Below, one piece after another: positions 1 to 37,458 of a DNA stretch of 64,000 bases. Under the pieces are notes generated by a model. That model worked only from the letters and a program-made list of their open reading frames with translations. It searched no databases and had not been told where the DNA came from. The first letter of the stretch is position 1. Each line of letters begins with the position of its first letter. The position numbers and the translations under genes were made by a program. Source of the stretch: Clarias gariepinus (Eukaryota); contig NC_071110.1 of NCBI RefSeq assembly GCF_024256425.1, positions 2,316,274-2,380,273 of the forward strand, in the 5' to 3' direction.

Positions 1-329
1 TAATCACAAGGTTTATAATAAAGTGCCTTGAAACCTTAAAAGTCAATACAATGACATTTTAAAAGTGCTCTTTTGCCTTCATTTTAGTGCTTTTCTTGAG
101 ACTGATTCTGTCTTTAATAATAGTTCCATTGAGGTGTATTTTATTTTTTAAAAAGGCGGGTAGCAGGGGGTGTAAGAAGGAAGTAACTTGGAGTTAAACA
201 TTAGGAGGTTAAGCTCTCCAACCATATAGGGATGTATGAGGTCCACCTTTTTTGCAAATAGGCTGTTTTTATAGAATAAAATCACTGTCAAAAATAATCA
301 TGCGTAAAAAATAAATAAATAATATAATT

Positions 330-661
330 CTGTTTTTTGTCCGAGTTTGATTCCAAAATCTACGTACTAGCGTACAGGTACGAGATTTTGTGGATGGGGT
401 GCATGCGCCTAATCGATTCCTTTTCCCTCTGATAGTAATGCCTGTGTGTGGCCTTGATGAGGTATATTTGATAGTGGTGTAACACACTACATTCGTGGGT
501 GTAATTTCTCAATTCGTCCGTGTAACAGAGGAGTTGTAAAAACGAGTTTTGTGTCTGTAAACGGTCATATATTTCGGAGTTGTACTGTAACAAACACAAA
601 ATCTCGTATCTGTAAGATTTCATGGCTGTAGATTTTGGAATCCAACTCGGACAAAACACAG
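330..661. mobile_element. Palindromic MITE (Angel-like non-autonomous DNA transposon), ~332 bp, with ~36 bp TIRs ctgttttttgtccgagtt(t/g)gattccaaaatctacg / its reverse complement. It lies in the last intron of finTRIM gene A.
   Basis: Terminal inverted repeats are read directly at 330-365 and 627-661. The internal arms are also mutually complementary (gtacgagattttgtg ... cacaaaatctcgtatc). A second copy at 9831-10175 has identical flanks. Confidence 0.75.
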
Positions 662-1043
662 AATTACACAGAAATCCTTTTTTTCGCACAATTATTTTTG
701 ACAGCGATTTTATTCCATAGTTTCACGTTAATTTTAAGATGAAGAGACAAACCAAAACAACATGCTCTGCATATACCAACTAGTGCAGCTGAATAACATT
801 AAATCATTTTTATTGTATAAAAGCACTAACATTTAAATTTTATTCTTTGCTTGCCAATTAGAGTAAATTAAAAAAGCCCATCGTGTTGGGGAGATGGGGG
901 GATTAGACCTGGCCAGTCTTGATTATTAATTATTGTTACAACCCCCTGTAATTAGGCCTATGGGGGTAATATTTCACAGGTATGGGTCATTTATAAACCA
1001 TTTGTGTTCTTGTTAAGACAATATCTTTCAACTTGTGCTATGT

Positions 1044-1082
<39 letters not shown>

Positions 1083-1636
1083 GCTTTTGTGCTTTTGAAT
1101 GTGTTTTATACGTACACTGCAGAAAATCTTCTCTTTTTGGTTTTGAGAGTACACCCGTCTGAACTGCAGCTGTGGAGACACAGAGACAAAATAAAGACTA
1201 AAAAATAAAATAAAACATTTAGAGCCTCAACCAAGATACTGACAAAAACTTTCCTATCACTGTGCAGCGTTATAAGATTATAAGAATCAGTATCTTTAAA
1301 ATAAACACAACACTTTAATGTGTTAATAACATAATGTGTCTTTTAAATTTCTGCTAGACTTAATGGGGAAAATGTAGGGTTGTGGCTGCTGTTGAGCTAA
1401 GATCAGTTTTTTACTCTTTACTGTTGGATTTTATTTTTTTACTTGACCTCATTTATATAGCATACTTATAAAATTCCTTTAATGATAGTAGAATTAATCT
1501 CAATTTGATGTAACTTCCCAGGTTAATATTCATATATGGTTGTTAAGGTAGTCTTATTTCTGCTGATTTCTCGACTTCTTATTTCTGCCTGTACGTGATG
1601 TCAAACATAAGATTTTAGCTTAACAGGTTCTCTTAC

Positions 1637-1760
1637 CACGTGGATTAATTTTGTTGAATTCTTCCTCAAAGATTTCTTCAATTCGTTTTCTCAGATCTGA
1701 AAGAGATTTCTGCACTCCATCAAATGAGAGATGTTGATTGACAGTAAAGCTGGGTGAGTC
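1637..1760 (-). CDS. finTRIM-like gene A, exon 4 (124 nt, phase 0 in, phase 1 out). It encodes DSPSFTVNQHLSFDGVQKSLSDLRKRIEEIFEEEFNKINPR(G/D).
   Basis: The acceptor is ..ctggatgtgag|GAC and the donor is CGTG|gtaaga. The reading frame is continuous with exon 3, whose donor is phase 0. The equivalent 124-nt exon is found in all four paralogs. Confidence 0.6.
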
Positions 1761-1984
1761 CTCACATCCAGGAGAAACACAGAGAGACGGGAAACTCTAC
1801 AGAGAGGAAACACATCATAGAGAAGGAGAAAAGTGTAGGAGAGGAACGAATGAATCTCAGACTGAATCAGACCAAAGACACACTTGTGATCTCAGACAGG
1901 AACATTTATTGTTGCTGTAATGAGATTTTAGGAGGAAACTTTGTGAGGAACAGCGCCCTCTGTAGATCAGACAGTGAGTGTTAC

Positions 1985-2218
1985 CTGGAGGAAGTGGACA
2001 TCATCTTCTGTTTGTGAAAGCTTCTTCATCTCAGTGACTCTCCTCTTAAGATCAGCAATCTCTTTCTCCAGTGGCTTCAGGAGTCGTTCAGCTCGACTCA
2101 GTTCAGCTTTCTCCTGAGCTCTGATCTTCTCTGTCACCTCCGAGCGCTTTTTCTCCATAAGGCTGATCAGCTCAGTAAAGATCTTCTCATTGTCATCTAC
2201 TGCTGCTCGTGCACGCAT
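1985..2218 (-). CDS. finTRIM-like gene A, exon 3 (234 nt, coiled-coil). It encodes MRARAAVDDNEKIFTELISLMEKKRSEVTEKIRAQEKAELSRAERLLKPLEKEIADLKRRVTEMKKLSQTEDDVHFLQ.
   Basis: The acceptor is tcctaacag|ATG and the donor is CTCCAG|gtaaca. The 234-nt size is typical of a TRIM coiled-coil exon. It matches the six-frame ORF at 1967-2218. Confidence 0.75.
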
Positions 2219-2224
2219 CTGTTA

Positions 2225-2260
<36 letters not shown>

Positions 2261-2361
2261 AGGGGGGGGGGGGGTACCTTTAAGTTTGATAACTTTCTTT
2301 TTCTTGGAAAAGAGGAGAAGAGAAAGTAGGATAGTGTTTTTAAGGAAATCTCTTTTCTTAC

Positions 2362-2457
2362 TTTAATTGAGTCAACAGACTGTTTCAGCTTCTGCATCCT
2401 TTCCATCTTCGTTTGTATCCTCTGCTGGAATTGCAATTGCATTTCCTCTAGCTCAGG
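2362..2457 (-). CDS. finTRIM-like gene A, exon 2 (96 nt). It encodes PELEEMQLQFQQRIQTKMERMQKLKQSVDSIK.
   Basis: The acceptor is tctcag|CCTGAG and the donor is ATTAAA|gtaaga. The exon is exactly 96 nt and phase 0 at both ends, which is the canonical 96-nt exon of B30.2 TRIM genes. Confidence 0.7.
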
Positions 2458-3389
2458 CTGAGATCAAATAAAATATTTTTAATTGTTCCTGTATCAAAAG
2501 CTCAGTGTGTCAATATTATTAGCATTTAAAAATCTTAAATAATTCTTTTGATTGTGTAACGCAGCTTTGTGACAATGACAGTTGTTAAAAGTGCTATACA
2601 AATAAATTTAAATTGAATTTAATTTAATAAAAAAAAAAGAAACTTATTCTACAAACTGTAGGTTAATAGTAAATTATGGTTGCAGGTTAAGGCATACTTT
2701 ATTAATTAATTAATTAATTAATTTGTTTATTTATTCATTTTAAACCTGATTCCTGTAACAATATGACTACTGATATAGTACATTACAGTACATTAAGGTA
2801 GCCCAGAAGTCTCCAAAATCCAATTACATTCATACAAAAAATCTTAGCGTTTACCTGCATGAATAGTGAAACAAATGATATTTGTATGAAAGACCACACA
2901 TAAAGCTGTGTTCTTTTTTTCCCTTCCTAATGAACTTATTTACTAGACATCTCCATCTTACGTTCCTTTATTACTGACAAAGGTTCGACATACTGTAACT
3001 CTCCCCTAACCACATCACATGTAAACCGTTATGCTCATACTGTACTATACATTTTCCTAACTGAAGTTTATAATATAAAGATGTCTAAAATAAAATGTAT
3101 TAGCGTAACAATTCAGAGTTTCTAAAAAATTTACATATTATAAACAAGCAACAAGCTTTAACACACTTTAGTGGTAAAACACTGTTACAATGTTGCTGGG
3201 CTTGGCTGTTTAAAGTGCACTGACAGGTCAGACCTGTTTCACACTTCTTTATAAAAAGCCCTGTGTGTTCTAATAAAATAATAAATAAAAGCCCTCCACA
3301 TTGAATGACTGAATAGAAATTATATTAGAACTCCTGTATTATTTGCATACAATTACTTAAATAAAAGTATAATGACAATAAGTTCTCAC

Positions 3390-3749
3390 CTGTTGTTTAC
3401 TTCTTTCTGCTTCAGCTAAAACTCTATCATGATCTTTATGTTCTCCCATCATACACATGTAACAGATGAAGCTTTGGTCAGTACGACAGTAGATGTCGAT
3501 CAGTTTGTTATGCTGAGAGCAGAATTTCTCTTGGAGCTCACAGGCTTCCATTAATTTGTGCCTCTTAAAGGCAGGAGACTGAAGATGAGGTTTAAGATGG
3601 TGTTCACAATAGGAGGTCTTACAGTCCTCACAGGACTTGACAGCTTTGCGTTTTCTCCCGGTGCAGGAATCACACTCCACATCTCCAGGTCCAGCGTAAC
3701 GATCATCAGGAGAAGCAGTGTGGTCATTAAAAAAACCATCCATTTCCAT
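3390..3749 (-). CDS. finTRIM-like gene A, exon 1. The ATG is at 3749 and the exon encodes B-box1 plus B-box2 only; there is no RING. The peptide begins MEMDGFFNDHTASPDDRYAGPGDVECDSCTGRKRKAV and ends SKQQ|gtgaga.
   Basis: The ORF at 3357-3749 carries B-box Cys/His spacing (CDSC..C..C.....C..H; C..H....C..D...IC..C....H..H). An in-frame TAG lies two codons upstream of the ATG, and the upstream 80 bp has no RING-like coding. The donor is CAACAG|gtgagaac. Confidence 0.75.
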
Positions 3750-3826
3750 GCACTAACACACCGAGAGTAAGAGAAAGAAAGCACACGAATGAGAGAGCTG
3801 GAAAGAGAAAGAGGAACTGTCAGGTA

Positions 3827-8790: not shown

Positions 8791-9113
8791 TAAATGAGTT
8801 ATGACCAATAAATCTGACCAAACCTGACTTTATGTACAGTAAAAGAAAAAAATCTATTGTATATATATTTTTATATGATCAGTTTAGAGGTGTATGAGTG
8901 AGACAGATATAAAATACTTCATTCTAGCTTCTGTTACTCTGTGTCAGTAATTCATACAATTATTATTTTAAATGAGACCATGATGATAAATAGTGCAAAG
9001 AATGTGGGAACTGTGCTCTTTTTACTTACTGGTTATACCATTTCTTTTTTTTTTTAAATTAAAAAGAAGTGACATTTAACAGGTTAAATCTAGGTTTAAG
9101 TCTTCTTCATTTA

Positions 9114-9682
9114 CATGGAAGATGAATCGTCACTATCTTCGACATTTAATTTTGGATCACATAAACTTATATTTGAGTAAAAATAACGTATCCTGAACCC
9201 AGCGTACAGAGGCTGAGTGAATGTGGTGTGGACACTGTGGAGGAGACTCATCGTGTCAGAGACGCTGTAGAAGGACAGAGTTCCTGCACTGTGATCCACA
9301 TACACTCCTATACTGAACAGTGATCCTTGTGAAACAGTGAGTTTTATTTCAGTGTTGTCATGCCAGAAAGATAGAGACTTAAGATAACACTGCAGATTCC
9401 AGGAATGACTGTTGCGTCCAAACACACACTCGTCACCCTCTCCTTTCCTGCTGATATTTTTATATGAGACTGATACGTCCACACCCATACCCTTATACTC
9501 TACCTCCCAGTAACAGCGTCCACACACACTCTCTCGACACAACACCTGAAGCGAGGAGTCAAACCTCTCTGGATGCTGACAGTATTGTTGTGCTTCCTTA
9601 ACCCGTGTCACTGCTCTGCTCCTCTCAGACAGAATGAGCTGGTCATGTGCTGTGTTGGGATCCAGAGTCAGATAACGAAAAT
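9114..9682 (-). CDS. finTRIM-like gene B, terminal B30.2 (PRY/SPRY) exon. It encodes (D)FRYLTLDPNTAHDQLILSERSRAVTRVKEAQQYCQHPERFDS...LDPNTAH...WEVEY...GVYVDHSAGTLSFY...PLYAGF... and the stop codon is at 9111-9113.
   Basis: The acceptor is cgctttag|ATTTTCG and is phase 1, completing the GAT (D) codon with the G from exon 4. The LDP, WEVE and the C-terminal AGTLSFY/PLYAGF motifs are typical of B30.2 domains. Confidence 0.8.
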
Positions 9683-9830
9683 CTAAAGCGATAAAATGTT
9701 CACAGGCTAGATATTAATCACAAGGTTTATAATAAAGTGCCTTGAAACCTTAAAAGTCACCACAATGACATTTTAAAGATGCTTCTTGGCCTTCATTTTA
9801 GTGCTTTTTTTAAAACTTTTCTTAAAAATT

Positions 9831-10175
9831 CTGTTTTTTGTCCGAGTTGGATTCCAAAATCTACGGCCACAAAAGCGTACAGGTACGAGATTTTGTGGAT
9901 GGGGTGCATGCGCCTAATCAATTCCTTTTCCCTCTGATAGTAATGCCTGTGCATGTGACCTTGATGAGGTATATTTGATAGTGGTGTAACACAGTACATT
10001 CGTGGGTGTAATTTTGTAATTCGTCCGTGTAACAGAGGAGTTGTACAGTACAAATGAGTTTTGTGTCTGTAAACGGTCGTATGTTTTAGAATTGTACTGT
10101 AACAAACACACAAAATCTCGTATCTGTAAGATTTCATGACTGTAGATTTTGGAATCCAACTCGGACAAAACACAG
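9831..10175. mobile_element. Second copy of the palindromic MITE (345 bp), in the last intron of gene B.
   Basis: The TIRs read ctgttttttgtccgagttggattccaaaatctacgg at 9831-9866 and ctgtagattttggaatccaactcggacaaaacacag at 10140-10175. Confidence 0.75.
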
Positions 10176-10551
10176 AATTACACAGAAATCCTTTTTTTCG
10201 CACAATTATTTTTGACAGCAATTTTATTTCATAGTTTCACATTAATTTTGAAGAGACAAACCAAAACAACATGCTCTGCATATACCAACTAGTGCAGCTG
10301 AATAACATTAAATCATTCTTATTGTATAAAAGCACTAACATTTAAATTTTATTCTTTGCTTGCCTATTAGAGTGAATCAAAAAAGCCAATCGTGTTGGGG
10401 AGATGGGGGGATTAGACCTGGCCAGTCTTGATTATTAATTATTGTTACAACCCCCTATAATTAGGCCTATGGGGGTAATATTTCACAGGTATGGGTCATT
10501 TATAAACCATTTGTGTTCTTGTTAAGACAATATCTTTCAACTGGTGCTATG

Positions 10552-10552
10552 T

Positions 10553-10611
<59 letters not shown>

Positions 10612-10612
10612 G
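10552..10612. repeat. (TG)n microsatellite. Similar tracts lie at 1041-1080, 2221-2262, 11763-11790, 35788-35822, 36425-36470, 37277-37312, 52432-52492, 54250-54305, 55413-55452 and 55538-55566.
   Basis: Direct reading. Confidence 0.95.
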
Positions 10613-11170
10613 CTTTTGTGCTTTTGTATGTGTTTTATACGTACACTGCAGAAAATCTTCTCTTTTTGGTTTTGAGAGTACACCCGTCTGAACTGCAGCT
10701 GTGGAGACACAGAGACAAAATGAAGACTGAAAAATAAAAGAAAACATTTAGAGCCTCAACCAAGATACTGACAAAAACTTTCCTATCACTGTGCAGCGTT
10801 ATAAGATTATAAGAATCAGTATCTTTAAAATAAACACAACACTTTAATGTGTTAATAACATATTGTGTCTTTTAAATTTCTGCTAGACTTAATGGGGAAA
10901 ATGTAGGGTTGTGGCTGCTGTTGAGCTAAGATCAGTTTTTTACTCTTTACTGTTGGATTTTATTTATTTTTTTTACTTGACCTCATTTATATAGCATATT
11001 TATAAAATTCCTTTAATGATAGTAAAATTAATCTCAATTTGATGTAACTTCCCAGGTTAATATTCATATATGGTTGTTAAGGTAGTCTTATTTCTGCTGA
11101 TTTCTCGACTTCTTATTTCTGCCTGTACGTGATGTCAAACACAAGATTTTAGCTTAACAGGTTCTCTTAC

Positions 11171-11294
11171 CACGTGGATTAATTTTGTTGAATTCCTCCT
11201 CAAAGATTTCTTCAATTCGTTTTTTCAGATCTGAGAGAGATTTTTGCACTCCATCAAATGTGAGATGTTGATTGACAGTGAAGCTGGGTGAGTC
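11171..11294 (-). CDS. finTRIM-like gene B, exon 4 (124 nt).
   Basis: It is homologous to gene A exon 4 and has the same splice junctions. Confidence 0.6.
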
Positions 11295-11518
11295 CTCACA
11301 TCCAGGAGAAACACAGAGAGACGGGAAACTCTACAGAGAGGAAACTCATCATAGAGAAGGAGAAAAGTGTAGGAGAGGAACGAATGAATCTCAGACTGAA
11401 TCAGACCAAAGACACACTTGTGATCTCAGACAGGAACATTTATTGTTGCTGTAATGAGCTTTTAGGAGGAAACTTTGTGAGGAACAGCGCCCTCTGTAGA
11501 TCAGACAGTGAGTGTTAC

Positions 11519-11752
11519 CTGGAGGAAGTGGACATGATCTTCTGTTTGTGAAAGCTTCTTTATCTCAGTGAGTCTTCTCTGAAGATCAGCAATCTCCTGC
11601 TCCAGTTGCTCCAGGAGTCGTTCAGCTCGACTCAGTTCAGCTTTCTCCTGAGCTCTGATCTTCTCCGTCACCTCCGAGCGCTTTTTCTCCATAGAGCTGA
11701 TCAGCTCAGTAAAGATCCTCTCATTGTCATCTACTGCTGCCTGTGCACGCAT
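11519..11752 (-). CDS. finTRIM-like gene B, exon 3 (234 nt, coiled-coil). It encodes MRAQAAVDDNERIFTELISSMEKKRSEVTEKIRAQEKAELSRAERLLEQLEQEIADLQRRLTEIKKLSQTEDHVHFLQ.
   Basis: It matches the six-frame ORF at 11501-11752, with an acceptor cag|ATG and a donor CAG|gtaaca. Confidence 0.75.
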
Positions 11753-11902
11753 CTGTTAGGACACACACACACACACACACACACATAGAGAGAGAGAGAA
11801 AGAGAGAAAGGGAGGGTCCTTTAAGCTTGATAACTTTCGTTTTCTTGGAAAAGAGGCGAAGAGAGAGGAGGAGAGTGTTTTTAAGGAAATCTCTTTTCTT
11901 AC

Positions 11903-11998
11903 TTTAATTGAGTCAACAGACTGTTTCAGCTTCTGCATCCTTTCAATCTTCGTTTGTATCCTCTGCTGGAATTGCAATTGCATTTCCTCTAGCTCAGG
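11903..11998 (-). CDS. finTRIM-like gene B, exon 2 (96 nt).
   Basis: It is homologous to gene A exon 2 and the reading frame is intact. Confidence 0.7.
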
Positions 11999-12895
11999 CT
12001 GAGATCAAATAAAATATTTTTAATTGTTCCTGTATCAATTGCTCAGTGTGTCAATATTATTAGCATTTAAAAATCTTAAATAATTCTTTTGATTGTGTAA
12101 CGCAGCTTTGTGACAATGACAGTTGTTAAAAGCGCTATACAAATAAATTTGAATTGAATAGAAAAAAAAACTTATTTCACAAATTGTAGGTTAATAATAA
12201 ATGATGATTGCAAGCTAAGGCATGCTTTATTTATTTATTCATTTTAAACCTGATTCCTGTAACAATACGACTACTGATATAGTATATTACAGTACATTAA
12301 GGTAGCCCAGAAGTTTCCACAATCCAATTACATGCATACATACACAAATCTTAGCATTTACCTGCATGAATAGTAAAACAAATGATATTTGTATGAAAGA
12401 TCACACGTGTTCTTCTTTTTTTCCCTTCCTAATGAACTTATTTACTACACATCTCCATCTTTCGTTCCTTTATTACTGACAAAGGTTCGGCATACTGTAA
12501 CTCTCCCCTAACCACATCACATGTAAATCGTTATGCTCATAGTGTACTATACATTTTCCTAATATAATAAAATAAATTGTTATGCGTAACAATTCAGAGT
12601 TTCTAATGAAAATCCACCTATTATAAACAAGCAACAAGCTTTAACACACTTCAAGTGGTGTTCACTTTAGTGGTAAAACACTGTTACAATGTTGCTGGAC
12701 TTGGCTGTGGCAGGTCAGACCTGCTTTACACTTCTTTATAAAAAGCCCTGTGTTCTAATAAAATAATAAATAAAAGCCCTCCACAACGAATGACTGAATA
12801 GAAATTATATTAGAACTCTAATATTGTTTTAATATAACTCTGCATTTTTTGCATACATTTACTTAAATAAAAGTACAATAACAATTAGTTCTTAC

Positions 12896-13270
12896 CTGTT
12901 TTTTACTTCTTTCTCCTTCAGCTACAACTGTATTATGGCCTTTATGTTCTTCTATCGCACATATAGGACAAATGAAGCTTCGGTCAGTACGACAGTAGAT
13001 CTCGATCAGTTTGTCATGCTTAGGACAGATCTTCTCTTGGAGCTCACAGGCTTTCATTTATTTGTGCTTCTTCAATTTAGGAGACTGATAGTGAGGTTTA
13101 AGATGATCTTTACAATAGGAGGTCTGACACACCAGGCAGGACTTAACCGCTTTGCGTTTTCTCCCGTTGCAGTAATCACACTCCACATCTCCAGGTCCAG
13201 TGTAACGATCAGCGAGAGAAGCAGTGTGGTCACCCAGACGCTGATTACTCGAAATACCAGCCATTTCCAT
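12896..13270 (-). pseudogene. finTRIM-like gene B, exon 1 (B-boxes only, no RING). An in-frame TAA at 13058-13060 changes KHK-L-MEA to KHK-stop. The gene is likely a pseudogene or a recently inactivated allele.
   Basis: The six-frame track splits this exon into ORFs at 13058-13270 and 12863-13057. Gene A has TTA (Leu) at the homologous codon. Confidence 0.65.
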
Positions 13271-13367
13271 GCACTAACACACCGAGAGTAAGAGAAAGAA
13301 ATAAAGTAAGAAAGAAAGAAAGCACACGAATGAGAGAGGTGGAAAGAGAAAGCGGAACTGTCAGGTA

Positions 13368-14202: not shown

Positions 14203-17200
14203 TATACTCTTTAACATGTTTAATGTCAAAGAAATGAACTTACAGCATTGCCTCTATGATGCCTCTTAGTGGATGCAATGGATTGTTGAGCACACTATGA
14301 CTATGTCATTGCCTTCACTCAGAACTGCGATTACACCGGAAGTGACTAAACAGGAAGTAACCAAACAGGAAGTGATGTCATCACATAAAAAATAATATGT
14401 TTACTAAATGAGGTAGATAAAGGAAAAGTCATTATAAACTTTATATTTCCACTTGAAAAAATGTACCAAAAAATTTAAAAGAAACTATTTACAAGTTAAA
14501 TTTCTTAAAGGACAAAACACTCCTTACCTGACCTATGTGAGGTCACTATAAACTTGACAGCGTGCTAAACCTAGTCTCTAGATCAGTCTTTGGGAAGAAG
14601 TAGAACGACTTCTGCAATTGGCCTTAGAAAGGTTTTGATATTGTCTTGGTCAGTTGTTGTGACCTCAACCTTTCTTACATGCCCGTCTTTCCAGGGTATA
14701 CGGCCGAGGTTCTGGCCATGGGCCAACAGTTGCGGGCTATCTGCTTGTCCCTAAGCAGAACTAGATCCCCCACTTGAAGGTTTCTGCGAGGTACTGTCCA
14801 CTTTTGTCTGTGTTGCAAGCAAGGTAAGTATTCACAGCTTCAGCGAGTCCAGAACTGGTTTGCAAGAGCTTGAACTTGTCTCCATTGCTTTGTGTACAGG
14901 TCTTTGTCCGAGAAGTCCCCGGGAGGAGGCAGAACTCCTGTCTTCTGTGTAAGGAGCACTGACTGTGAAAGTATGAATGTTTGTTCCGGATCTGCAGACA
15001 CAGGTAGGAGTGGTCGTGCATTTATAATAGCAGTCACTTTTGCCATTAGTGTGCAAAGGACTTCATGGGTTAAGCGAGTTTTCAGCTGCAGAAACATTGA
15101 ATCCAGGATTCTTCTGGCAATGCCGATCAGGCGCTCCCATGAGCCTCCCATGTGAGAACTGTGTGGTGGGTTGAATTCCCAGCTGCACTCTTGCTCACTG
15201 AGATACCTTTGCACTGTTTTGTCCATTCCAAGCTCCTTGCATGCTCCGATAAAATTGGTACCACAATCGGAACAAAGCCGTTTTGCAGAGCCTCTGAGTG
15301 CAAAGAAGTGCCTGAGAGCATTTATGCAACTTGACGTGTCCATAGACTCAATGATATCGATGTGCACAGCTCTTGAACTCATGCAGCACAACATAATGGC
15401 CCACTTCTTGCTCTCTGCCTGTCCTTCTCTGGTGCGTCGGCTTATGACTGACCAGGGACTGAATACATCGAGCCCTACATGTGTAAAGGGAGGGCAGACT
15501 TTGAGACGTTCAGATGGCAAGTCTGCCATGTTTTGTTCAAGCTTTCCACGCAGCTTGCAACAGGTTACGCATTTGTGTAGTACTAAATTAATTAGTGACT
15601 TCCCTCCCAAGATCCACAGTCCTGCTGCCTTGATTGCTCCTTCCGTCAGGTGACGGCCTTGATGTTTCACTTGCTCATGGTGATGTCGAGTGAGCAGTAG
15701 GGATACATGGCTATCTTTGGGAATAATTATTGTTTTTTTTTTTCCTAAGTTGTAACTTCAGAATACTTAAGTCTTCTTCCAACACAAATGAAATTGTCCT
15801 CCATGATCGGACTTAGTTTTCGCAAGCAGCTAGTTTTGGATACAGTTTGGTTAGCCTGGAGGGCTGACAGTTCTTTTGCAAATGCATCCTTTTGTGTTGC
15901 TTTAAGTATAACATTCCTTGCTTGGTCAAATTCGTCTGGAGTACAAGGTAAGTCACATCTGTGCCAACCTTTGCATTTGCTGTTTTGGTTTGTGTGGTTG
16001 AAGGATTTTGCCATGTGAACTAGAAATGCTACTCCTCTTACTAGGGAGGTGAAGGTAGAAAACCGTTGGAATCGGTTAGAGGTAAGCTCTGGTTCTTCAA
16101 GGTTAGTCGCACATGTTTGTATTTGTGGTCGGATTTCCAAGTCACTTTCAGGTTCAATTAGTTCAAATGTCTCTGTTATTTGTGTTCCTTCTGCAGATGG
16201 CTGAGGCAGGAATGAGGGGCCGGTGAACCAAGAAGTCTGAGCCAGATGGGATGCAGGTAAAGATCGCGACGCATGATCTGCAGGGTTTTCTTCTGTACGT
16301 ACGTAGTGCCACTGCTCACGTCTTAAAGACTGATGAATGCGTTGGACTCTATTGTGAACGTACACATAGAATCGTTTTGACACATTATAAATGTAGCCAA
16401 GCACTACTTTGCTGTCAGTAAAGAAATTTAAGTCACTTAACTCAAGATCTAACTCATCCTTAATGAGATCTGCCATCTCTACTGCTAAGACCGCAGCACA
16501 CAGCTCAAGCCGTGGGATTGTAGGTTCGGAGAGGGGTGCCAGTTTTGCCTTGCCCATAACAAATCCTACCTCAACCTGCACATCTTTCTGAGATGCTTTC
16601 AGATATGCTACTGCACCTATGGCCTTAGTTGATGCATCTGAGAATACACACAATTCTGTGTGCACCGCTTCAATTAGTGAGGTTGTTGTGTATGTACGTG
16701 GAACAAGAAGCTGTTCTAGGTTTTGGAGAGAATCTCTCCAGGCTTCCCATTTACTCAGTTTAGGGAGGAATGTGTCCCAATCTGACTGTTTAGAGGCAAG
16801 TTCTCTAAAAAGGGCTTTTCCCTGAATCGTGACAGGTGCCACCAGACCTAGAGGATCAAAAACACTGTTGACAGTGGAGAGGACTCCGCGACGGGTAAAT
16901 GACTTGGTAATGGTCGATGCAGAGTAAGTGAATGTGTCAATCGTGATCTCCCATAGCAGCCCTAAACTCCTTTGTGTGGGTGAAGTTTCTCCACTCAGAT
17001 CTAGGTCCTTAATTACTGGAGCACAATCTTCTAGCGGAAAAGCTTTTATGACTGTCTGAGAGTTCGAAGCAAACTTATGCAAACGGAGGTTTGACTCGGC
17101 TAGTGACGCCTGTGTACGCTGGAGCAGATCGATTGCTTCAGCTTCGGATGGAACGGATATCAAACCATCATCAACATAGAAACATCTTTCCACAAACTTG

Positions 17201-20200
17201 ACGGTATCAGCACCATACTCCTGTGCACCTTCTCTGATGGCTCTCCACAACCCATAAATGGCCACGGCGGGAGATGGCTGATTGCCAAAGACATGGACCT
17301 TCATTCAATACTCGATAATTTCCTTGTTGACGTCATTGACCTTGGCCATAGGAATCGAAAGAAGTTACGATGGTCATCACACACCAAGATACAATGGAAC
17401 ATCTGTTGAATGTCCGCTAGGATGGCAACCCTCTCTTTTCGAAATCTTAGCAGGACGCCAACAAGGGAGTTATTGAGGTTGGGACCTGTGAGGAGCACAT
17501 AATTGAGCGAGATGTCCGCGCAACGAGCACTGGAAATAAAGACCACCCTGATCTGCTTGGGTTTTTGAGGATGATAGACCCCAAATGTAGGAAGATACTG
17601 TTACATCCCTAGGGATGTATGCATATTAATATTTATTTGGGGTGTTGTTTTTTTCCCGCCCTTTGGGTGTGGCTGCTGGTTCCTTTGCTGTGTGCTCTTT
17701 TACTCTCTCTGCTTGCTTGGCAGTTAAATGCTCCCAGGTGATGCCAATCAGGGGGTGGCTACAGACGGTGCTGCTACAAAAGATCAGTGCACGCATTCCC
17801 GAGGAGAAGCTCATTTCTCCCCTGCTCCAGAATTGTGTTAGGGGGCCTGCTATCAGATAATTGTTGTTGTGGTGCAAGTATCAATGATTATAGATAATGG
17901 TTCAGTGAGTAGGTTGTATGTTTATTTTCTCTAGTTGGTGCAACCTACTTTAATATATATTTTCTTTGTTAGTGGTACTAAGAGGTATTGTAACTTTTTT
18001 TTTCTTTTTGTTATAGTTAAATGGGAAGACGTAGGGAGAGGGTGCCCTTTTATTTTGTTTAACCCATGTTTATCCCTGTTTTTCAGTTAGTAAGGGAGTG
18101 GACGAAAGCCTTTGTTGATTATTTCTTTTATTTTACTCGGTTAGGTTATTTAGTTATCCCCTTAAACAGCTAAAGTGTGTTTTGTTTGTTATGTTGGCCT
18201 TGACCCTCTCCTGAAATCATTTATTGCTCCAATGTTTTAGTACCTATAAATAAACCCTTGCTTAATTATCAAAAAGTGTTGTTGCATTTCTGGGGCAGTG
18301 GACTGAAGTGATCCTTCCACATTTTTTTTGTTAATTTCTTCCTTATAAGTTTAATTTCTTTTGTTACCCTCACTCCCACCCCTGGATCGAAGAATTCAGG
18401 TCTGGCTAATGAACTATTGCTCTGGTCGTATAGAATTACGTAGGCTTTGATGGCCATGTCTTTGGAACCTTCTGGGTACAGCTTTACAAGGCAGATTTTT
18501 GAGCATGAGCGGCCCCACTGACTTGGACCACAAACTTTTGTACAGCTTATATTGACTACAGCGTTATTAGAATTATCTTCTCTCTCCCCGCCATCCTCTT
18601 GTGATGGTGAAGGAGCCTTGACTGCTTGGGGTGATGGGCCAGGGTGCATGGCCACATCATGATAAATGCTTCCACATTCGGAGCATTCCACGGATTATGC
18701 ATTCCTTGGCGAGGTGAGAAATCGAAGAACAGCATTTGAAACATATTCCTTTCTCCTTGAGGAATGCCTTTCTGAAATCGAGAGGTTTGTTTCTAAATGT
18801 TCTGCATTTTTTTCAAGGGGTGCAGTTTATTGTGTAATGGACAGATTTTGTTAGGATCATCACCGGTTGCACATACATCTGTTTTGTGAACTGAGATGGA
18901 TTTGTTGGTTTGGAAACTCTTCACGATGGATCTGTCTGGTTTTGCAGTTGTAACACTGCTTTGATGCATAAAGCTTGGATCATTTCATTTTTTTGCTTCG
19001 TAGCACACAAAGTTACAGAAATCCTCAAAGGGAGGAAAGCGACCATAATTCCCTTCTTTGTAGCATGACCCAGAAGTCACCCACTTGTCCTGAAGTCCAT
19101 ATGGAAGCTTATCTATAATTGGTGCAATTCCACGTAAAGTGTCAAGGTATGACAGACCTGTGAGATAACCATCCTCTTTAGCTTCCTGGATTTTCATAAG
19201 CAAATCCCCCAGTTCACGTAATTGAATGTGGTCTTTAGCTGAAAACCTAGGAAAACTGTCCAATCGTTGATTCAGTGATCTTTCGATGATTTCTGGTGCA
19301 GCATAGCACTCATGTAGTCTTTCCCATGCTTTTTGTAGAGCCAGATTGGGATTATTGACATGCACTGAGCGGATCCGTTTCACTATTTCGCCAGATTACT
19401 TTCCCAGCCATTTCGTCATGAGGTCTAATTCCTGGGTTGCTGTGAGGTGAACTTTACGAGCTGCACTTGTGAATGAAGAATACCATGACCGATAATTTTC
19501 AGGCTTGTCATCAAATTGGTACAGTCCTGAATTAACAAGGTCTCGCCGAGCTAAATACTGTGCCAAAGGCTCTGCCTGTGGTGGCGTGCTATCTAGAGAA
19601 ATGTACTGAGCAGTGTAAGACTTGGCAGGTGTATTCATGATGGGGCTGGTCCTCCCAACTTCAGACTTAATCACACCTTCAGACAGATCAGAGAGGTATG
19701 TTGCAGGTAAGTGCATACTATCTGCTTTTTCAGACTTCGGCTTGTTTTTGGTAAACTGTGCGTTTTTAATGTCTTTCACAGCTGGACTCCACGTTATGAA
19801 GCTGTTATGTAAGTCGCCATGAAATGGAGGAGCAACGGGCAGAGCCGACAAGCGTGGAGAAGGAGAATGATTCTGAAGGTTGATTTAAGAATTGACATAT
19901 TCACTGGTACGTTCAATTTTAACTTTCTCTGATTCAGATCCTCCTCTTTCAACTGCGGCATGCATTGCTACTTCAGCATCTTCCAGCACTTGTGCCTCCA
20001 CAGCAGCTGCATCAGCTTCCCGTTGTAGTGTCAACACTTCTAACTCGGTGTCTATTCTTACTGTTTCCAGCTGATTTTGAGCTTCTCTTGTGGCCTTTTC
20101 CATTTTCAGTTTAGCCTCTTGGCTGGCATATGATGCTCCCACTTTGGCCGCTTCAGCTCTGGCCCGTGCAACTGGTCGTTGATCCGGATGACTTGCCACT

Positions 20201-20878
20201 TCTTGTGCTGCACACAGACGACTTGCTACTTGTGGCCATTTTAACCACTATTTCAATAAATAATGCCTTTTCACAATAATGTTCTCGTGCAGAGTGTTGA
20301 ACTCTGACTTAACACCAAGTTAAACCGTAGCCAATGAAGACAGAGTTGTGGTAACATCGATCATTTACTGTCACTCTTCATCATTAACATTTACAGTGAA
20401 AACTGTAATAAAACAATAGAGCAATATTCAGTGTCCGTGTCTTACATTGCATTACTATGCCTGTCTATAACAAACTACTGTTCTCCTTTAAATGGCAATT
20501 ACAATGGCTATTAGCATCACTGAAAGCTTGCACTCAACAGTAAATTACTAATATATACTCTTTAACATGTTTAATGTCAAAGAAATGAACTTACAGCATT
20601 GGCTCTATAATGCCTCTTAGTGGATGCAATGGATTGTTGAGCACACTATGACTATGTCATTGCCTTCACTCAGAACTGCGATTACACCGGAAGTGACTAA
20701 ACAGGAAGTAACCAAACAGGAAGTGATGTAATCATATAAAACGAATAATATGTTTACAAAATGAGGCAGATAAAGGAAAAGTCATTATAAACTTTACATT
20801 TCCACTTGAGAAAAATGTACCAAAAAATATTAAAAGAAACTATTTACAAGGTAAATTTCTTAAAGGACAAAACAGTAT
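14203..20878 (-). mobile_element. BEL/Pao-family LTR retrotransposon, about 6.7 kb, with LTRs at 14203-14525 and 20539-20878. The gag-pol region is broken into at least 7 ORFs by frameshifts. It is nested inside the Tc1-like remnant.
   Basis: Direct repeats of about 330 bp are read at both ends and are roughly 95-97% identical by eye. The ORFs give an integrase DDE core (14840-15670), RT with FYVDDGL plus RNase H (15745-17304), and gag-like coiled-coil and capsid segments (18269-20199). Confidence 0.85.
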
Positions 20879-22174
20879 AGTTATTTGGATTTTTACAACA
20901 TTATTGTTGAAATACACAGTCCTAAAAAAGGGACGTTTCTTTAATCCTTGAAAATGCCAAAGGGTCCCCGCAGCTCTTTGTCCAATATCTTGCCAGTTTT
21001 TTTGCTTGAGTATGTTTGGGCATGTCAGGGAACTTGTTTGTTCTATGAATTAATTAAATCTTTGAAAAATGCCAAAGGGTCATGCAGAAAATAATAATTT
21101 TAAGAGATTTCCTGTTAGAACATTTTTCTCATATAAAATGTGGTTCAATTTCACTGTTTTGGCCAACAATGTACATACTTTTAAATTTATAAAGTGATGT
21201 CATTGCTGCATACCTTTTATCTTTGGTCATTTTTTTTCTTTCCTTAATTTTTTTTTTAAACTAGGCACCTAATGGCTTTAAGTTTTTTTTTATTATTATT
21301 ATTTTATTCAATGTCCTCAGGACATTACCCACCCCAATTAAGAGAGAAGATTAAACCCCTGCATCTTGGGCATGTGTACGTAGACTGGTTATATATAATT
21401 CCTAATGATTTCACACAAAACAGAAAAATGAATTATGCCCATAAAACTATACAGTACAGAATATATTCACAGCAGTATGAATGAACTGTTGTTTATTTTG
21501 TAGCGATTTGTAACATGAAAGTAATTGATACATTATGCCATGTGTTCAGAAAGGTTATACTTAAAATAATGAGTAAAGTACTTGTAACTCTAATAGCTAC
21601 ATAAGCACAACACTTGAGTTCATCACATTCTCCTCTTCTGTACAGGGAAATGATCAGGGTCCTTAAAGTAAGCAGACATGGGACGCATTTGAAGCTAACT
21701 TAAGCTACAGTAACCTGCATATCCTATACCATCTTATACATGCATTTAAAATGTCACCATAAAATGCACATACAATTACAGGAGATGCTCTCAATCTTAA
21801 TAACGTTAGTATTTAATATTATCTTACCAGTCGCTCGCAGGCTCTCTGCTGGACCAGACTCCACGTTGTCCAGTTCAGGTGATAAAGGTAGATGGTGTCG
21901 TGGGACTCGATCACACTGGATGCTATTTATTTTTATTAAAATATTTATCTTTTCGTATTCCCCACTTCAGTATCACACCATATGTTGTGTGCAGCTTGAG
22001 CCGCACTTTGTTCAGCTCTTTGCTATTGTTTAATCAGCAAAATTACCATCATTGAGTTCTTTAGTTATAATAGAGACACCCTTGTTTCTATTGGTGTACA
22101 ATGTACTCACAATTCAACTTTTTTTACTCCGGATCTGAGCTGGCCGAGTGAGATCCTGAGGTAGAACAAAATTT

Positions 22175-24660
22175 TCAAATTCAAATTTTATTTGTCACAT
22201 ACAAAGTCATACACAGTATGATATGCAGTAAAATGCTTATACGACCGCCGGCGACCATAAAAAGAAAACAAAAAACTATATATAGGGAATAAATATCAAT
22301 AAAAGAAATAAAATACAAAGGAAAATAAATGTAACTAGTAAAATTAACAACTGTACAAATGATGGCATGTAAAAATATCACAAAAATTGAATTTTGGAAT
22401 ATGGGGGGGGAATATATATATAAAACTTTTTTTAAATGTTTTAAAGTGGCATTAAAATGTCTTAAAGTGTCAGAGTGGCAAAGTGTCATGTGCAATGGCA
22501 GGTAAACATGTATTGTATAAAGTGACATGTGCAATGGCTTCAGATATGTAAATATGTATTGCATGAATGTGTCCATGATTGTCCAGTCAGTGTCAATGTT
22601 TAAAAGACATTACTCCTGTGTGGTGTGATGTGATTGAGAGACCTTATCGCCTGCGGGAAGAAGCTCCTCCTCAGTCTCTCTGTGTTGGCCTTCAGGGAGC
22701 GGAATCGCTTCCCAGACCGCAACAGAGAAAACAGTCCATTGTTGGGATGGCTGAGGTCCTTCACAATCTTTCTGGCCTTGGTCCAGCACCACTTGCTGTA
22801 GATTAAGTGCAGGTCAGGGAGCTCGGTGCGGATGATGCGCTCAGCTGATCGCACCACCCTCTGTAGAGCTCGTCTGTCCTGCATGGTGCTGTTTCCAAAC
22901 CAGGTCGTAATGTTTCCCGTCAGGATGGTCTCTATGGTACAGGAGTAGAAATTCCTGAGCACCTTAGAGGGCAGTCTAAAGTCTCTCAAGCGTCTGAGGT
23001 GGTAGAGACGCTGCCGGGCTTTTTTTACCACGGTGTTGATGTGACAGGACCATGACAGGTCCTGCGTGATGTGAACACCGAGGTATCGGAAGCTGTCCAC
23101 TCTCTCCACTGGGCTTCTGTTGATGATGGGGGTCTGGTAGTTCCTCTCCTGCTTTGTACTAAAGTCCACTATCAGCTACTTTGTCTTGCTGACGTTCAGG
23201 AGGAGATTGTTCGTCTGGCACCAGTTCTCCAGGTTTCCAATCTCCTCTAGATAGGCCGACTGATCATTGTTGGTGATCAGGCCCACCACGACTGTAAGCA
23301 GCAAACTTGATGATGGCGGTGGAGTTGGTAGTGGCCACACAGTCGTGGGTGTACAAAGAGTACAGCAGGGGGCTCAGAACACAACCCTGAGGGGCTCCAG
23401 TGCTGAGAGTGAGTGAGGCTGAGACATGTCCGCCCATCCTTACTGCCTGTGGTCTGCCAGTCAGAAAATTGGAGATCCACTGACACATGGATGAGCTGAG
23501 TCCCAAGTGCTCCAGCTTGGTGGTGAGTGTGGAGGAAATTATGGTATTAAATGCAGAGCTGTAGTCGATGAAGAGCATTTTAACATAATTACCTTTCCTA
23601 GTGTCCAGGTAAGTAAGTGATGTGTAAAGGAGATGAGAGATTGCATCGTCTGTGGAACGGTTCTGGCGGTATGCAAACTGTAGTGGGTCGAGTGTGTCCG
23701 GTAGTGAAGAAATGATAGTCATTCAACGTCCTGACCAGGCGTTCAAAGCACTTCATCACTACTGAGGTGAGGGCTACAGGGCGATAGTCATTGAGAGAAG
23801 CAGGATGAGGTTTCTTTGGGACAGAAACAATGATGGACTCTTTGAACCATGTGGGGATCACTGACTAAGATAAAGAGATGTTAAATATCTCAGTGAACAC
23901 AGGTGCTAGCTGGTCTGCGCAGGCTCTGAGGATACGGCCTGAAATGCCGTCTGGTCCTGCTGCTTTCCTGGTGTTTACTCTCTTGAAGGCTCTTGAAAAA
24001 GTTGTGACTAGTTTCCTCCCGTAGCGCTGCTTCGCCTCTTTCACCGCCTTCCAGACGTTGTATGACGCAGCCTTGTATGGTTCCATGTCCCCCGACGCAA
24101 GTCCCGTGTTGTAGGCAGCGGTGCGAGATCTCAGAGCGTCGCAGATGGTTTTATCCACCCACGGCTTCTGGTTGGGAAACATTCTAATAGTCTTTTTCTC
24201 CACGGTATCATGCGCTAGTTTCCCAATGAATCCCACAACAGCTTCCGTAAACACGCTGACTTCATCATCGGAGCTGTTTCGGAACATGTCCCAGTCTGCG
24301 TCATCGAGTGCGTCCTGTAACGCGGCCACCGATTGGTCCGTCCAGCGCGCGACCCCGCTCTGAACCGTAACTTTCTGTTTCAGCCTTTGTTTGTATTTTG
24401 GCATGAGGAAGATGGCGGCGGGGTCGGATTTACCAAACGGAGGGCGAGATTGTGCCTTGTAGCCGTCCTTGACCGTTGTATAACAATGATCCAGTGTCCT
24501 TTCACCCCTGGTGGGGCAGATGATGTGTTGATAAAAGTTCTGCGCTGTGCGTTTGAGGTTGGCACTGTTAAAGTCCCCTGCCACAATAAGCGCAGCGTCC
24601 CAGTGTTGTGTTTGGTGCTGTGTGAGTGCCTCATGCAGCTCACATAAGGCAGTGTCCGTG
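22175..24660 (-). mobile_element. L2-like non-LTR retrotransposon, 5'-truncated. It includes the C-terminal part of the endonuclease, the RT and the 3' UTR.
   Basis: The ORFs show the endonuclease GDFN motif (23865-24584), RT motifs [34 protein letters not shown] and KFA (23264-23722), and the RT C-terminal RYLGVHITQDLSW..KKARQRLYHLRRL (22600-23169). Confidence 0.85.
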
Positions 24661-32199: not shown

Positions 32200-32470
32200 T
32201 TCCTTTCTTTGAGTGTATAATCCAAAGGATTTTGCATGCACCCATTCGGATCTTCCTCATCCCCAAAGTCATTAATACACACCTTACAGTAACTGTAGTC
32301 AATGGATCTTTTAAGAGATTTAGACACACTGGACTCTCTTGATCTGTTAAAATACCTGCCTCTGCCATTTTGCAGGAGTCATACACTGGGGTGAGGGTAT
32401 GTGCGTGGGTTTGGAGATTGCCTAAGAGGTGGCCGAGTTTCGTTTTCTGGGAAAAGAGCTTCATATAGTT
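32200..32470 (-). pseudogene. Orphan, frameshifted remnant of a finTRIM exon 1. It keeps the 5' UTR, the ATG and part of the RING.
   Basis: The two overlapping ORFs read ..SPVCLNLLKDPLTTVT.. and ..SYCKVCINDFGDEEDP.., which match CPVCLDVLTEPVT / SYCKVCINGCWDQEDV of genes C and D. The nucleotide blocks cattaatacacaccttacagtaactgt and cctctgccatttt are shared with 39600-39790. No downstream exons are present. Confidence 0.65.
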
Positions 32471-35217: not shown

Positions 35218-35744
35218 TTTTGGATCACATAACCTCATAGGGGAATCATAACTCCATATAGAGAACCCAGCGTACAGAGGCTGAGTGAATGTGGTGTGCA
35301 CTGTGTGGAGGAGGCTCATCGTGTCAGGGACGCTGTAGAAGGACAAAGTTCCTGCATTGTGATCTACATACACTCCTATTCTGGAGGACGCTGAACCTTG
35401 AAGCTCAGTTATAATGCTATTGTGCCGGAAACAAACAGAGGAAGAAGAACACTCCAGACTCCAAGATTGACTGTTGCGTCCAAACCTACACTCTTTGCCC
35501 TCTCCTTTCCTGCTGATCTCTTTATATGAGACTGATATTTCCACACCAAACCCGCTCCACTCCACCTCCCAGTAACAGCGTCCACGCATACTCTCCTTAC
35601 ACAAGACCTGAGGCCAGGAGTCAAATCTCTCTGGATGATCAGAGTATCCTTGCTGTTTCCTACTGAGAGTTACATCTCTGTTGTTTTTAAATATAAAGAG
35701 TTTGCAGTTTGCTGTGTTGGGATCCAGAGTCAGATAATTAAAAT
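35218..35744 (-). CDS. finTRIM-like gene C, terminal B30.2 exon. It encodes (D)FNYLTLDPNTANCKLFIFKNNRDVTLSRKQQGYSDHPERFDSWPQVLCKESMRGRCYWEVEW...GVYVDHNAGTLSFY..PLYAGF..CDPK and the stop codon is at 35215-35217.
   Basis: The acceptor is tttcag|ATTTTAA, phase 1. The frame is open from the acceptor to the stop. Confidence 0.8.
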
Positions 35745-35790
35745 CTGAAACAACAAAAGTGTCCTTAGGTTAAATATTAGTCACAGGATC

Positions 35791-35824
<34 letters not shown>

Positions 35825-36088
35825 TGCACCCACACTCTAGCAAATCTTCTCTACTTTTTGGTTTTGAGAGTGGAATCATCAGAACGGCTGCAACTGTGGA
35901 AATAATATGAAAATTATATAAACATAATGGTAATTATGTTTTCTTTTTTTTACCTAGACATGCTGCACTATCAATAAACACATTCCATATAGTTTATGTT
36001 CCTTAATCCTTAAGGCCACCAGCACCGATTGGTGCATAGGGCAATTAGAGTTCTCCATTGTAGAGGACATTTGCTGTTTCTGTAGTGA

Positions 36089-36300: not shown

Positions 36301-36424
36301 TCGTGAAATTGCTGAAGGCTCGTAAATGCAGAACTACTCCCCAGTTTCTGTTGTTCTTCACCTTATCTTTTATTAACATTCCAGACCAGATGTAAACGCT
36401 CCTGCATCCTCCTTTTTGGTGCTT

Positions 36425-36463
<39 letters not shown>

Positions 36464-37273: not shown

Positions 37274-37458
37274 CTGTTAGGGCACACACACACACACACA
37301 CACACACACATGCAAAGAAACATTTAAGACTCAAAAAAAAAAAGAAGAGTGTTTGTGTTTAATAGTTGTTTTTTTTTAAAGAGCTTTCTTGGCATGATTT
37401 TAAAGTCACAGGAAAAGCAAGAAGAGGAGGGTGTTTTTCTATAAGTTGATTCTCTTAC

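Follow-up and report, generated by a model that had tools for sequence, protein, structure and literature searches.

A stretch of 64,000 nucleotides (nt) of the Clarias gariepinus genome (contig NC_071110.1, positions 2,316,274 to 2,380,273), hereafter the window, holds four finTRIM (ftr)-type genes, here called A to D, all on the minus strand, in which intron 3 and its surroundings are nearly identical. We found that this near-identical tract is the core of a block of ≈0.5 kb, which spans exon 3 and the 188-nt intron 3 and reaches ≈105 nt into exon 4. In gene C, the block (codons 241–345 plus intron 3) occupies 36747–37249 on the minus strand, and its equivalent in gene A lies at about 1692–2194. 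Our preferred reading, to which we give a probability of roughly 45%, is that purifying selection acts on the nucleotides of the block in essentially every member of the family, with gene conversion on top; a pre-mRNA processing role of the block is the guess that goes with it, at lower confidence.

When positions 1711–2000, the part of gene A in which an earlier note had pointed out the near-identity, were used as a blastn query, three further copies were found in the window, and no fifth. They lie at 11245–11534 in gene B (4 mismatches in 290 positions, 98.6% identity), 36768–37053 in gene C (3/286, 99.0%) and 53736–54023 in gene D (11/288, 96.2%), bearing out the claim of an ≈290-bp tract in all four TRIM paralogs, at 96–99% identity. 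The intron limits given in that note were right at the donor end (1984) and wrong at the acceptor end (1761). The true acceptor of gene A, ctctctgtag/ (a slash marks a splice junction here and below), is at 1797, 36 nt further in. The minus strand across this site reads ...tttcctctctgtag/AGTTTCCCGTCTCTC..., and in-frame translation from there gives SFPSLCVSPGCEDSPSF..., which is found in the RefSeq protein P0005; a sequence of the type SF[PQ]SLCV directly follows FLQ in almost all catfish homologues among 120 matches. The exons of gene C measure 600/96/234/160/60 nt, the fifth at 35835–35894, with a B30.2 exon of ≈528 bp. This six-exon layout matches the published organization of zebrafish ftr genes (555–594/96/234/154/60/≈545 bp; PMC2657112), into which an exon 4 of 124 nt would not fit. 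The acceptor is placed at 1797 because the exon 4 translation is in frame, is found in P0005 and matches the published ftr exon sizes.

Gene A intron 3 is accordingly 188 nt long (1797–1984, minus strand; GTAACA...CTCTGTAG, splice sites read from the sequence). It is flanked by the 234-nt exon 3, which encodes the coiled coil (1985–2218, minus strand), and by an exon 4 of 160 nt that begins SFPSLCVSPGCE (1637–1796, minus strand, from the in-frame translation), the first 36 nt of which correspond to 1761–1796. The 124-nt exon 4 proposed earlier has to be given up, as 36 nt of the supposed intron are coding. The acceptor proposed with it was also considered as an alternative splice site and rejected, being used in 0 of the 120 annotated homologues. 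In the other three genes, all on the minus strand, intron 3 is at 11331–11518 in gene B (exon 4 at 11171–11330, exon 3 at 11519–11752), 36852–37039 in gene C (exon 4 at 36692–36851, exon 3 at 37040–37273) and 53822–54009 in gene D (exon 4 at 53662–53821, exon 3 at 54010–54243).

Within the genome, the intron is indeed better conserved than its exons, as had been claimed. Intron 3 differs at 1–2 of 188 nt among genes A–D and at 0–2 among five Clarias copies, compared to 15–25 of 234 nt for exon 3 and 6–28 of 160 nt for exon 4 over the gene pairs of the window (13–28 in every pair but A vs. B). It is also more identical than the neighboring introns, the comparison that the earlier note had named as a possible refutation. 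The contrast is strong for C and D, which diverge by 0.5% in intron 3, 15.4% in intron 2 and 8.6% in intron 1, with intron 4 unalignable (Fisher p = 6.6e-26). It is weaker for A and B (1.1% vs. 4.9% pooled, p = 0.02), because intron 4 of these two genes is also only ≈1% diverged. The A–B comparison (1300–2800 vs. 10830–12350) is a patchwork: introns 3 and 4 and exon 2 are ≈1% diverged, compared to 5% in the 3' part of exon 4, 6.4% in exon 3 and 12% in intron 2. The conserved unit is larger than the tract described earlier, covering exon 3 completely and continuing for ≈105 nt into exon 4.

Homologous loci in other catfishes were retrieved through proteins matching gene C and compared over the module formed by exon 3, intron 3 and exon 4 (582 nt). 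The gene C module aligned end to end, intron included, across six catfish families: Clariidae, Pangasiidae, Ictaluridae, Bagridae, Ariidae and Siluridae. Its identity to gene C was 96% in Pangasianodon hypophthalmus (two copies), 96% in Ictalurus punctatus, 95.8% in Tachysurus fulvidraco, 97.1% in Neoarius graeffei, 93.2% in Silurus asotus and 97.2% at a second Clarias locus. Between families, intron 3 differs at 3–12 of 188 nt, a divergence (K) of 0.016–0.068, or 93–98% identity. The longest perfect run between families is 210 nt (the Clarias L010 copy vs. Ictalurus); other family pairs reach 105–160 nt, and the longest run invariant in all seven copies is 45 nt.

The coding part of the block was analyzed in a codon alignment of five catfish families with 25-codon sliding windows. 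The proportion of synonymous differences (pS) was 0.05–0.43 along most of the gene. Over codons 241–345, a stretch that begins close to the start of exon 3 and ends 105 nt into exon 4, it was exactly 0. All 27 changes in the block were nonsynonymous and none was synonymous (S = 70, N = 245), compared to 247 and 103, respectively, in the remaining coding sequence (Fisher p = 3.6e-14). The gene thus shows local synonymous constraint, with 0/70 synonymous sites changed in the block vs. 103/252 elsewhere. The nonsynonymous rate in the block is lowered only about 2.3-fold, and the ratio of nonsynonymous (dN) to synonymous (dS) divergence exceeds 1 there because the synonymous sites are frozen. The amino acid variants E/K, K/Q and S/L recur in paralogs of different species, which looks like old paralog variation, not new substitutions. 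Exon 3 dS is also reduced, compared to other parts of the genes, when catfish are set against more distant fish: 0.13 vs. 0.43–0.50 for piranha, 0.20 vs. 0.47–0.59 for electric eel and 0.26–0.31 vs. 0.73–0.77 for a cyprinid.

Silent divergence between the same gene pairs is dS 0.19–0.36 in exon 1 and 0.26–0.36 in exon 6 (B30.2), and no alignment was obtained for the other TRIM introns of these between-species pairs. The literature yielded no usable 4DTv value for the neutral rate, so as a clock we used the first two exons of the single-copy KATNAL1 gene, located beside the Pangasianodon cluster, which were compared with those of Tachysurus ichikawai. This gave a dS of 0.363 (20/70) and a dN of 0.043, and the KATNAL1 introns of the same species pair could be aligned only in patches of 72–87% identity. 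The clariid split is dated to ≈98 million years ago in the C. gariepinus genome preprint (bioRxiv 10.1101/2023.03.23.533919). Compared to silent sites elsewhere, in the same genes and in KATNAL1, intron 3 and the surrounding synonymous sites evolve 6–30 times more slowly. Conversion homogenizes copies within a genome and cannot slow divergence between species, so conversion alone is insufficient and purifying selection is needed. Judging from these alignments, intron 3 is under purifying selection, or something equivalent. Both directions offered by the earlier note are therefore right in part. Its functional intronic element is supported by the between-family data as purifying selection on nucleotides, and not in the specific forms of a small RNA or a stable fold (see below), whereas recurrent gene conversion contributes within genomes and is insufficient alone, given a between-family K of 0.02–0.07.

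Conversion was judged by divergence per feature, the intron offering almost no polymorphic sites. The likeness among copies is about 5-fold greater inside one genome than across families: the intron differs at 0–2 of 188 nt within Clarias and at 1 of 189 within Pangasianodon, compared to 3–12 between families. Gene C and the Clarias L010 copy have a dS of 0.23 in exon 1 and 0.55 in exon 6 despite their near-identical introns. The two Pangasianodon copies, with a dS of ≈0.2 in exons 1 and 6, have in common four substitutions and one insertion that are private to the family, and differ from each other at one site. Paralogs are thus more alike within than between species, the pattern that conversion produces; the neutral-rate divergence between species that would go with conversion alone is not observed (K 0.02–0.07 vs. 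dS 0.19–0.36). The genes themselves are mosaics. Exon 1 is 92% identical between C and D, whereas their B30.2 exons are 74% identical, compared to 85% for B and D. Furthermore, Clarias protein P0023 carries a B30.2 domain nearly identical to that of gene C on a different N-terminal half. Together, these observations indicate recombination between gene halves. In the degenerate-looking genes A, B and D, dS and dN are both around 0.1 in exons 3–4, and the intron is intact. The simplest reading is that there are two layers, in which selection keeps the block in working copies and conversion homogenizes its core even in decaying ones.

The electric eel Electrophorus voltai has a homologous intron 3 that can be aligned over its full length, with an 11-nt insertion. 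Its K is 0.36–0.40 to catfish and 0.18 between two eel paralogs, the exon 1 dS of which is 0.26. In piranha, and in an ftr14-like pair of Silurus meridionalis, the intron is recognizable only at its two ends, over ≈26 nt on the donor side (GTAACACNCACTGTCTGATCTACA) and ≈20 nt on the acceptor side, and the middle differs. Because the eel homologue is unfrozen and piranha and S. meridionalis keep only the intron ends, the intron is older than the catfishes, and the freeze is catfish-specific. Two S. asotus copies (L011, 15474–15980 and 2050–2555) have each lost 75 nt from the middle of intron 3, by different deletions, one of which lies between direct repeats (CTGTCTGA); the remaining intron is near-identical to the catfish consensus. 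Two adjacent piranha paralogs (Pygocentrus nattereri L003, 15289–15742 vs. 20710–23398) have an exon 3 dS of 0 with one nonsynonymous change, and unrelated introns 3 of 76 nt and 2.3 kb, respectively. Homogenization in piranha affects the exon and leaves the intron out.

Apart from the TRIM frame, neither strand of the block contains a readable coding sequence. The plus-strand open reading frames (ORFs) over the tract exist, and are by-products, as had been suggested. An 87-codon antisense ORF across the intron was rejected because the Pangasianodon sequence carries one inserted nucleotide and no 3-periodicity is seen in the variable sites. Dual coding on the sense strand was likewise rejected, the other two frames being full of stops. 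A hosted small RNA, one of the functions proposed earlier, found no support: there is no match to Rfam in the intron (whole window at the gathering score; positions 1600–2250 at E ≤ 10), and no significant hairpin on the sense strand. We found no description of a frozen block in finTRIMs in the literature.

Several features of the intron suggest a role in pre-mRNA processing. The best-conserved stretches are the donor with the next 68 nt and the acceptor with 21 nt. The donor, CAG/GUAACA, is off consensus at +5 and +6, and its conservation extends to piranha. According to the predicted folds, the donor region (UCCAGG/UAACAC) pairs with the start of exon 4 (GUGUUUCUCCUGGA), and intron positions 19–32 (CUACAGAGGGCGC) pair with the acceptor region (..CCUCUCUGUAG/). 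The inverted pair ctacagag ... ctctgtag, which had been described near the two intron ends, does take part in ≈14 bp of pairing in these folds; its edge was misread, as ctacagag (1797–1804) is the complement of the true acceptor. In the RNA, the 5' arm CUACAGAG (1959–1966, minus strand) pairs with CUCUGUAG at the acceptor (1797–1804). The helices that bridge the splice sites recur in the minimum free energy, centroid and RNAalifold consensus structures. The helix between UCCAGG and CCUGGA has all of its positions paired (100%), three G-C pairs being changed to G-U in eel, and the bridging helices include one compensatory change, from C-G to A-U. Pairs changed on both sides number 5, compared to 1.5 in shuffles (3/500), a weak signal, as the structure was derived from the same eight sequences.

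The preceding splice site is also unusual. In all four genes of the window, a (UG)n tract replaces the normal polypyrimidine tract at the exon 3 acceptor. In gene A, the tract abuts the acceptor CCUAACAG/ at 2227–2257 (minus strand); the same tract is found at about 11760–11790 in gene B, 37280–37310 in gene C and 54250–54300 in gene D, reading (CA)n on the plus strand. It is present in all seven aligned copies of Clarias, Pangasianodon and Ictalurus, in one of the two S. meridionalis copies and in both piranha copies, and may mark a regulated or structure-dependent exon 3 acceptor.

More specifically, the block could be a cis-acting pre-mRNA processing element that sets the efficiency of intron 3 removal, our leading guess as to its function, and one that we rate as less likely than not. 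In such a mechanism, the helices would loop out the intron and mask both splice sites, as well as another in-frame acceptor located 36 nt downstream. Five codons into the intron, the reading frame ends at a stop (..HFLQVTLTV followed by the stop) that catfish and piranha have in common; an unspliced or intron-terminated transcript would be expected to yield a RING/B-box/coiled-coil protein without B30.2. A short intron dense in signals common to dozens of paralogs would be kept in step among them by selection, and conversion from many intact copies would keep the decaying copies A, B and D identical in the core.

A number of observations weigh against the processing element. The predicted fold is no more stable than that of shuffled sequence, with z = +0.19 for the 278-nt intron plus flanks and z = −1.2 for the sense strand of the intron alone, so that the folding proposed in the earlier note as a check revealed no unusually stable structure for either. 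The covariation depends on two eel sequences, in a structure taken from the same alignment, and one of the 75-nt deletions in S. asotus removes the 5' arm of the inner helix. Moreover, ≈30 bp of helix cannot account for the freeze of 188 nt of intron together with the exon 3 synonymous sites. These sites are in fact more conserved than the intron (0/70 vs. 16/188), which a splicing element does not predict. In genes A, B and D and in S. asotus, exon 3 has a dS of 0.06–0.13 with the intron unchanged; exon 3 has diverged there while the intron has not, which shows that the constraints on exon and intron are separable. No annotated isoform retains or ends in intron 3. Finally, the eel intron is almost neutral, making the constraint lineage-specific, which a processing element leaves unexplained.

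On the antisense strand, the intron alone has z = −2.5. The only 100-nt windows with z below −2.5 were one antisense window in the central intron (−2.7) and those with a palindrome hairpin in exon 3. In gene C, at about 37170–37230 (module positions 44–107), exon 3 contains the perfect palindrome GAGCTGATCAGCTC and the near-repeat GAGCTGATCAGAGCTC (coding for FTELIS and VTELIR). Together they form the hairpin, for which z is −2.6 in sense and −3.4 in antisense orientation, and the second arm of which changes from copy to copy with no compensating substitutions.

Several other explanations were considered. The block could be a DNA-level regulatory element (intragenic enhancer, promoter or chromatin element), similar to an ultraconserved element and overlapping exons 3–4 by chance. 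We consider this unlikely, although it fits the roughly uniform conservation (variable sites by codon position 11/9/4 in exon 3, and 17/188 in the intron), the end of the block within exon 4 and not at a splice site, the 210-nt run at 100% between families and the failure to find an RNA structure signal. Against it, known enhancers are rarely conserved at 97% over 500 bp, conservation of this degree is not known from multicopy immune genes, and such an element would leave unexplained why synonymous sites are even better conserved than intron sites. Alternatively, the intron could harbor a polyadenylation switch, producing short isoforms without B30.2 in competition with splicing, aided by the suboptimal donor and the in-frame stop. 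Gene A has an AAUAAA hexamer, a candidate intronic poly(A) signal, at 1905–1910 (minus strand, read from the sequence), and the spacing is canonical: AAUAAA at intron positions 75–80, a CA about 18 nt on, at about 98, and the GU-rich run GUGUGUCUUUGGUCUG at 102–117. The hexamer and the GU-rich run are retained in both eel copies, catfish and piranha share the in-frame stop, and truncated TRIM isoforms and diverse finTRIM products from 3' rapid amplification of cDNA ends have been reported (PMC2657112). However, no part of the intron varies more than the surroundings of the hexamer, where 20 nt include 5 variable sites; the hexamer itself reads AGTAAA in Ictalurus and AAGAAA in Tachysurus, and two S. 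asotus copies have this region deleted. The intron-terminated isoforms predicted for seven genes were absent (0/7) from a collection of 15 billion proteins, in which the only match to a 41-residue query ending in ..FLQVTLTV was an ORF call on a metagenome fragment, and no such isoform is annotated. On balance, a switch of this kind appears quite unlikely. Homology-dependent regulation in trans, in which small RNAs or antisense transcripts from some copies act on all and many-to-many matching freezes the block, would explain both the freeze of silent sites in a multicopy family and the core kept in decaying copies, and the antisense z values of −2.7 (central intron window) and −2.5 (intron alone) point the same way. 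We nevertheless find it improbable, as the four genes lie on one strand with no obvious antisense promoter, and cytoplasmic small RNAs would leave the intron unconstrained. A somewhat broader version, also quite unlikely, would be a family-wide frozen module that originated in the catfish ancestor, is absent in electric eel and is read by one homology-dependent system, be it small RNAs, antisense RNA or a dedicated RNA-binding complex. If true, it would amount to a novel form of joint control over an expanded family of innate immune genes.

The remaining explanations carry little weight. Pure concerted evolution, in which a neutral intron is overwritten repeatedly by conversion tracts ending near the exon edges, agrees with the greater likeness of copies within genomes than between families, with the private changes common to the Pangasianodon copies, with the A–B patchwork and mosaic gene halves and with the gene conversion documented in fish NLR-B30.2/finTRIM families (bioRxiv 10.1101/027151). 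It is very improbable all the same, as it cannot lower divergence between species (intron K 0.02–0.07 vs. neutral ≈0.2–0.36), and the eel, with the same gene architecture and a homologous intron, shows no freeze. Four CUGA motifs and one AUGAUGU motif in the intron might suggest a hosted small nucleolar RNA (snoRNA) or microRNA. The box order is wrong for a C/D-type snoRNA, however, there is no hairpin of pre-microRNA size (sense z = −1.2), Rfam gave no match in the intron even at E ≤ 10, and conservation extends over the whole intron and both exons and not a discrete unit of ≈80 nt, which makes such an RNA scarcely credible. Nor do we give any real weight to late coalescence through horizontal transfer, in which a mobile element or virus would have carried the block among catfish lineages in recent times, to be copied afterwards into the genes already present there. 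The very low silent divergence, with dN not below dS, would be expected of a young sequence, and the eel intron is unfrozen. On the other hand, exact-pattern scans for the intron core in IMG/VR viral and JGI metagenome contigs gave no match, the block edges have no mobile-element features, every species has private substitutions, and transfers among families on different continents would be needed, with replacement throughout the family in each.

The four genes of the window lie on the minus strand at about 1–3800 (gene A, partial), 9111–13300 (gene B), 35215–39770 (gene C) and 52771–57445 (gene D). The spliced protein of gene C matches RefSeq 'E3 ubiquitin-protein ligase TRIM16-like [Clarias gariepinus]' (P0005), as well as 8000 homologues that carry the Pfam domains zf-C3HC4, zf-B_box, TRIM_CC, PRY and SPRY. 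Gene C has the complete domain set of finTRIM/TRIM16-like proteins (RING, two B-boxes, coiled coil and B30.2 PRY/SPRY). With four genes and an extra B30.2 exon on one strand within 58 kb, the window also has the tandem clustering of ftr genes. The exon 1 ORF of gene A (3357–3749) begins within the B-box region and lacks the RING, and gene B lacks an intact exon 1 ORF (12850–13300). Genes A and B are probably pseudogenes or truncated genes, yet intron 3 is intact in both. The B30.2 exon of gene D itself carries an internal deletion; in RefSeq model P0033, splicing continues downstream to a piece resembling exon 5 and to an orphan B30.2 exon, the fifth of its kind. The parts concerned are at 49702–50265, 52510–52569 and 52771–53178. 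An isolated RING-like fragment at 32226–32368 (minus strand; MAEAGILTDQES..PVCLNLLKDPLTT; ..YSYCKVCINDFGDEEDPNG) is apparently what remains of a fifth TRIM gene. Interspersed with the TRIM genes and next to them are retroelement ORFs (14840–19851, 22600–24584, 40503–44744 and 60605–63595), of integrase/reverse transcriptase (RT)/gag-like, LINE-like RT, gypsy-like gag-pol and LINE endonuclease/RT kinds.

Expanded immune gene families normally change fast, and low silent divergence within them is routinely ascribed to conversion. Here, an intron and the synonymous sites of ≈100 codons have remained almost untouched for ≈100 million years in many paralogs, in genes that otherwise, including the virus-recognition domain, evolve at normal or elevated rates. 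Such a freeze points to a strong function at the nucleotide level in this family. Some caution is warranted, as the dN/dS above 1 in the block reflects frozen synonymous sites and not necessarily positive selection.

The block has partial counterparts in several known systems. Ultraconserved elements, some of which overlap exons, were reportedly described by Bejerano et al. in 2004. Classic elements of this type are single-copy sequences of developmental or RNA-processing genes, and their conservation spans vertebrate classes; the strict definition asks for at least 200 bp at 100% identity between distant species. As in the exon-overlapping elements, exon and adjoining intron of the catfish block are near-identical irrespective of coding over ≈100 million years; unlike them, the block is multicopy, belongs to a fast-diversifying immune family and occurs in this frozen form only in catfishes. 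The synonymous constraint elements that Lin et al. are said to have identified in 2011 in coding exons of 29 mammals resemble the block in the sharp local collapse of the synonymous rate within an ORF (0/70 vs. 103/252). The catfish block differs in being continuous with an equally conserved intron and in recurring in the paralogs examined. Introns more similar than exons have reportedly been described in venom phospholipase A2 and major histocompatibility complex genes (Nakashima et al. in 1993 and 1995; Bergstrom et al. in 1998). These cases have in common with ours that introns are better conserved than exons, be it among paralogs or alleles, and that exon dN is not below dS; there, however, the introns are neutral and the exons accelerated or old, whereas the catfish intron itself is 6–15 times slower than neutral between families. 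Plant NLR families under microRNA control are similar in logic to a homology-dependent reading of the catfish block.

Closest to the proposed RNA structure are teleost introns that depend on RNA structure bridging the splice sites, a class recognized by complementary (AC)n and (GU)n repeats at opposite intron ends (Lin et al. 2016, PMC4691745). The ends of the catfish intron are similarly predicted to pair, looping the intron out, and the neighboring intron 2 ends in (UG)n instead of a polypyrimidine tract. Intron 3 differs from these introns in lacking (AC)n/(GU)n, in pairing through unique sequence and in having a fold that is not unusually stable. Intron 2 does not have the repeat pair either, with (UG)n at the 3' end only and, in gene A, no (AC)n partner. 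The combination of concerted evolution with purifying selection is known from mammalian HSPA1A/HSPA1B (PMC5865164), and low within-genome dS in zebrafish NLR-B30.2/finTRIM exons has been explained by conversion within the species (bioRxiv 10.1101/027151). In these systems, as in catfish, conversion homogenizes the paralogs and selection conserves them. There, however, the sequences concerned are protein-coding exons, whereas in catfish an intron and silent sites are conserved too, and this between families, which conversion does not account for.

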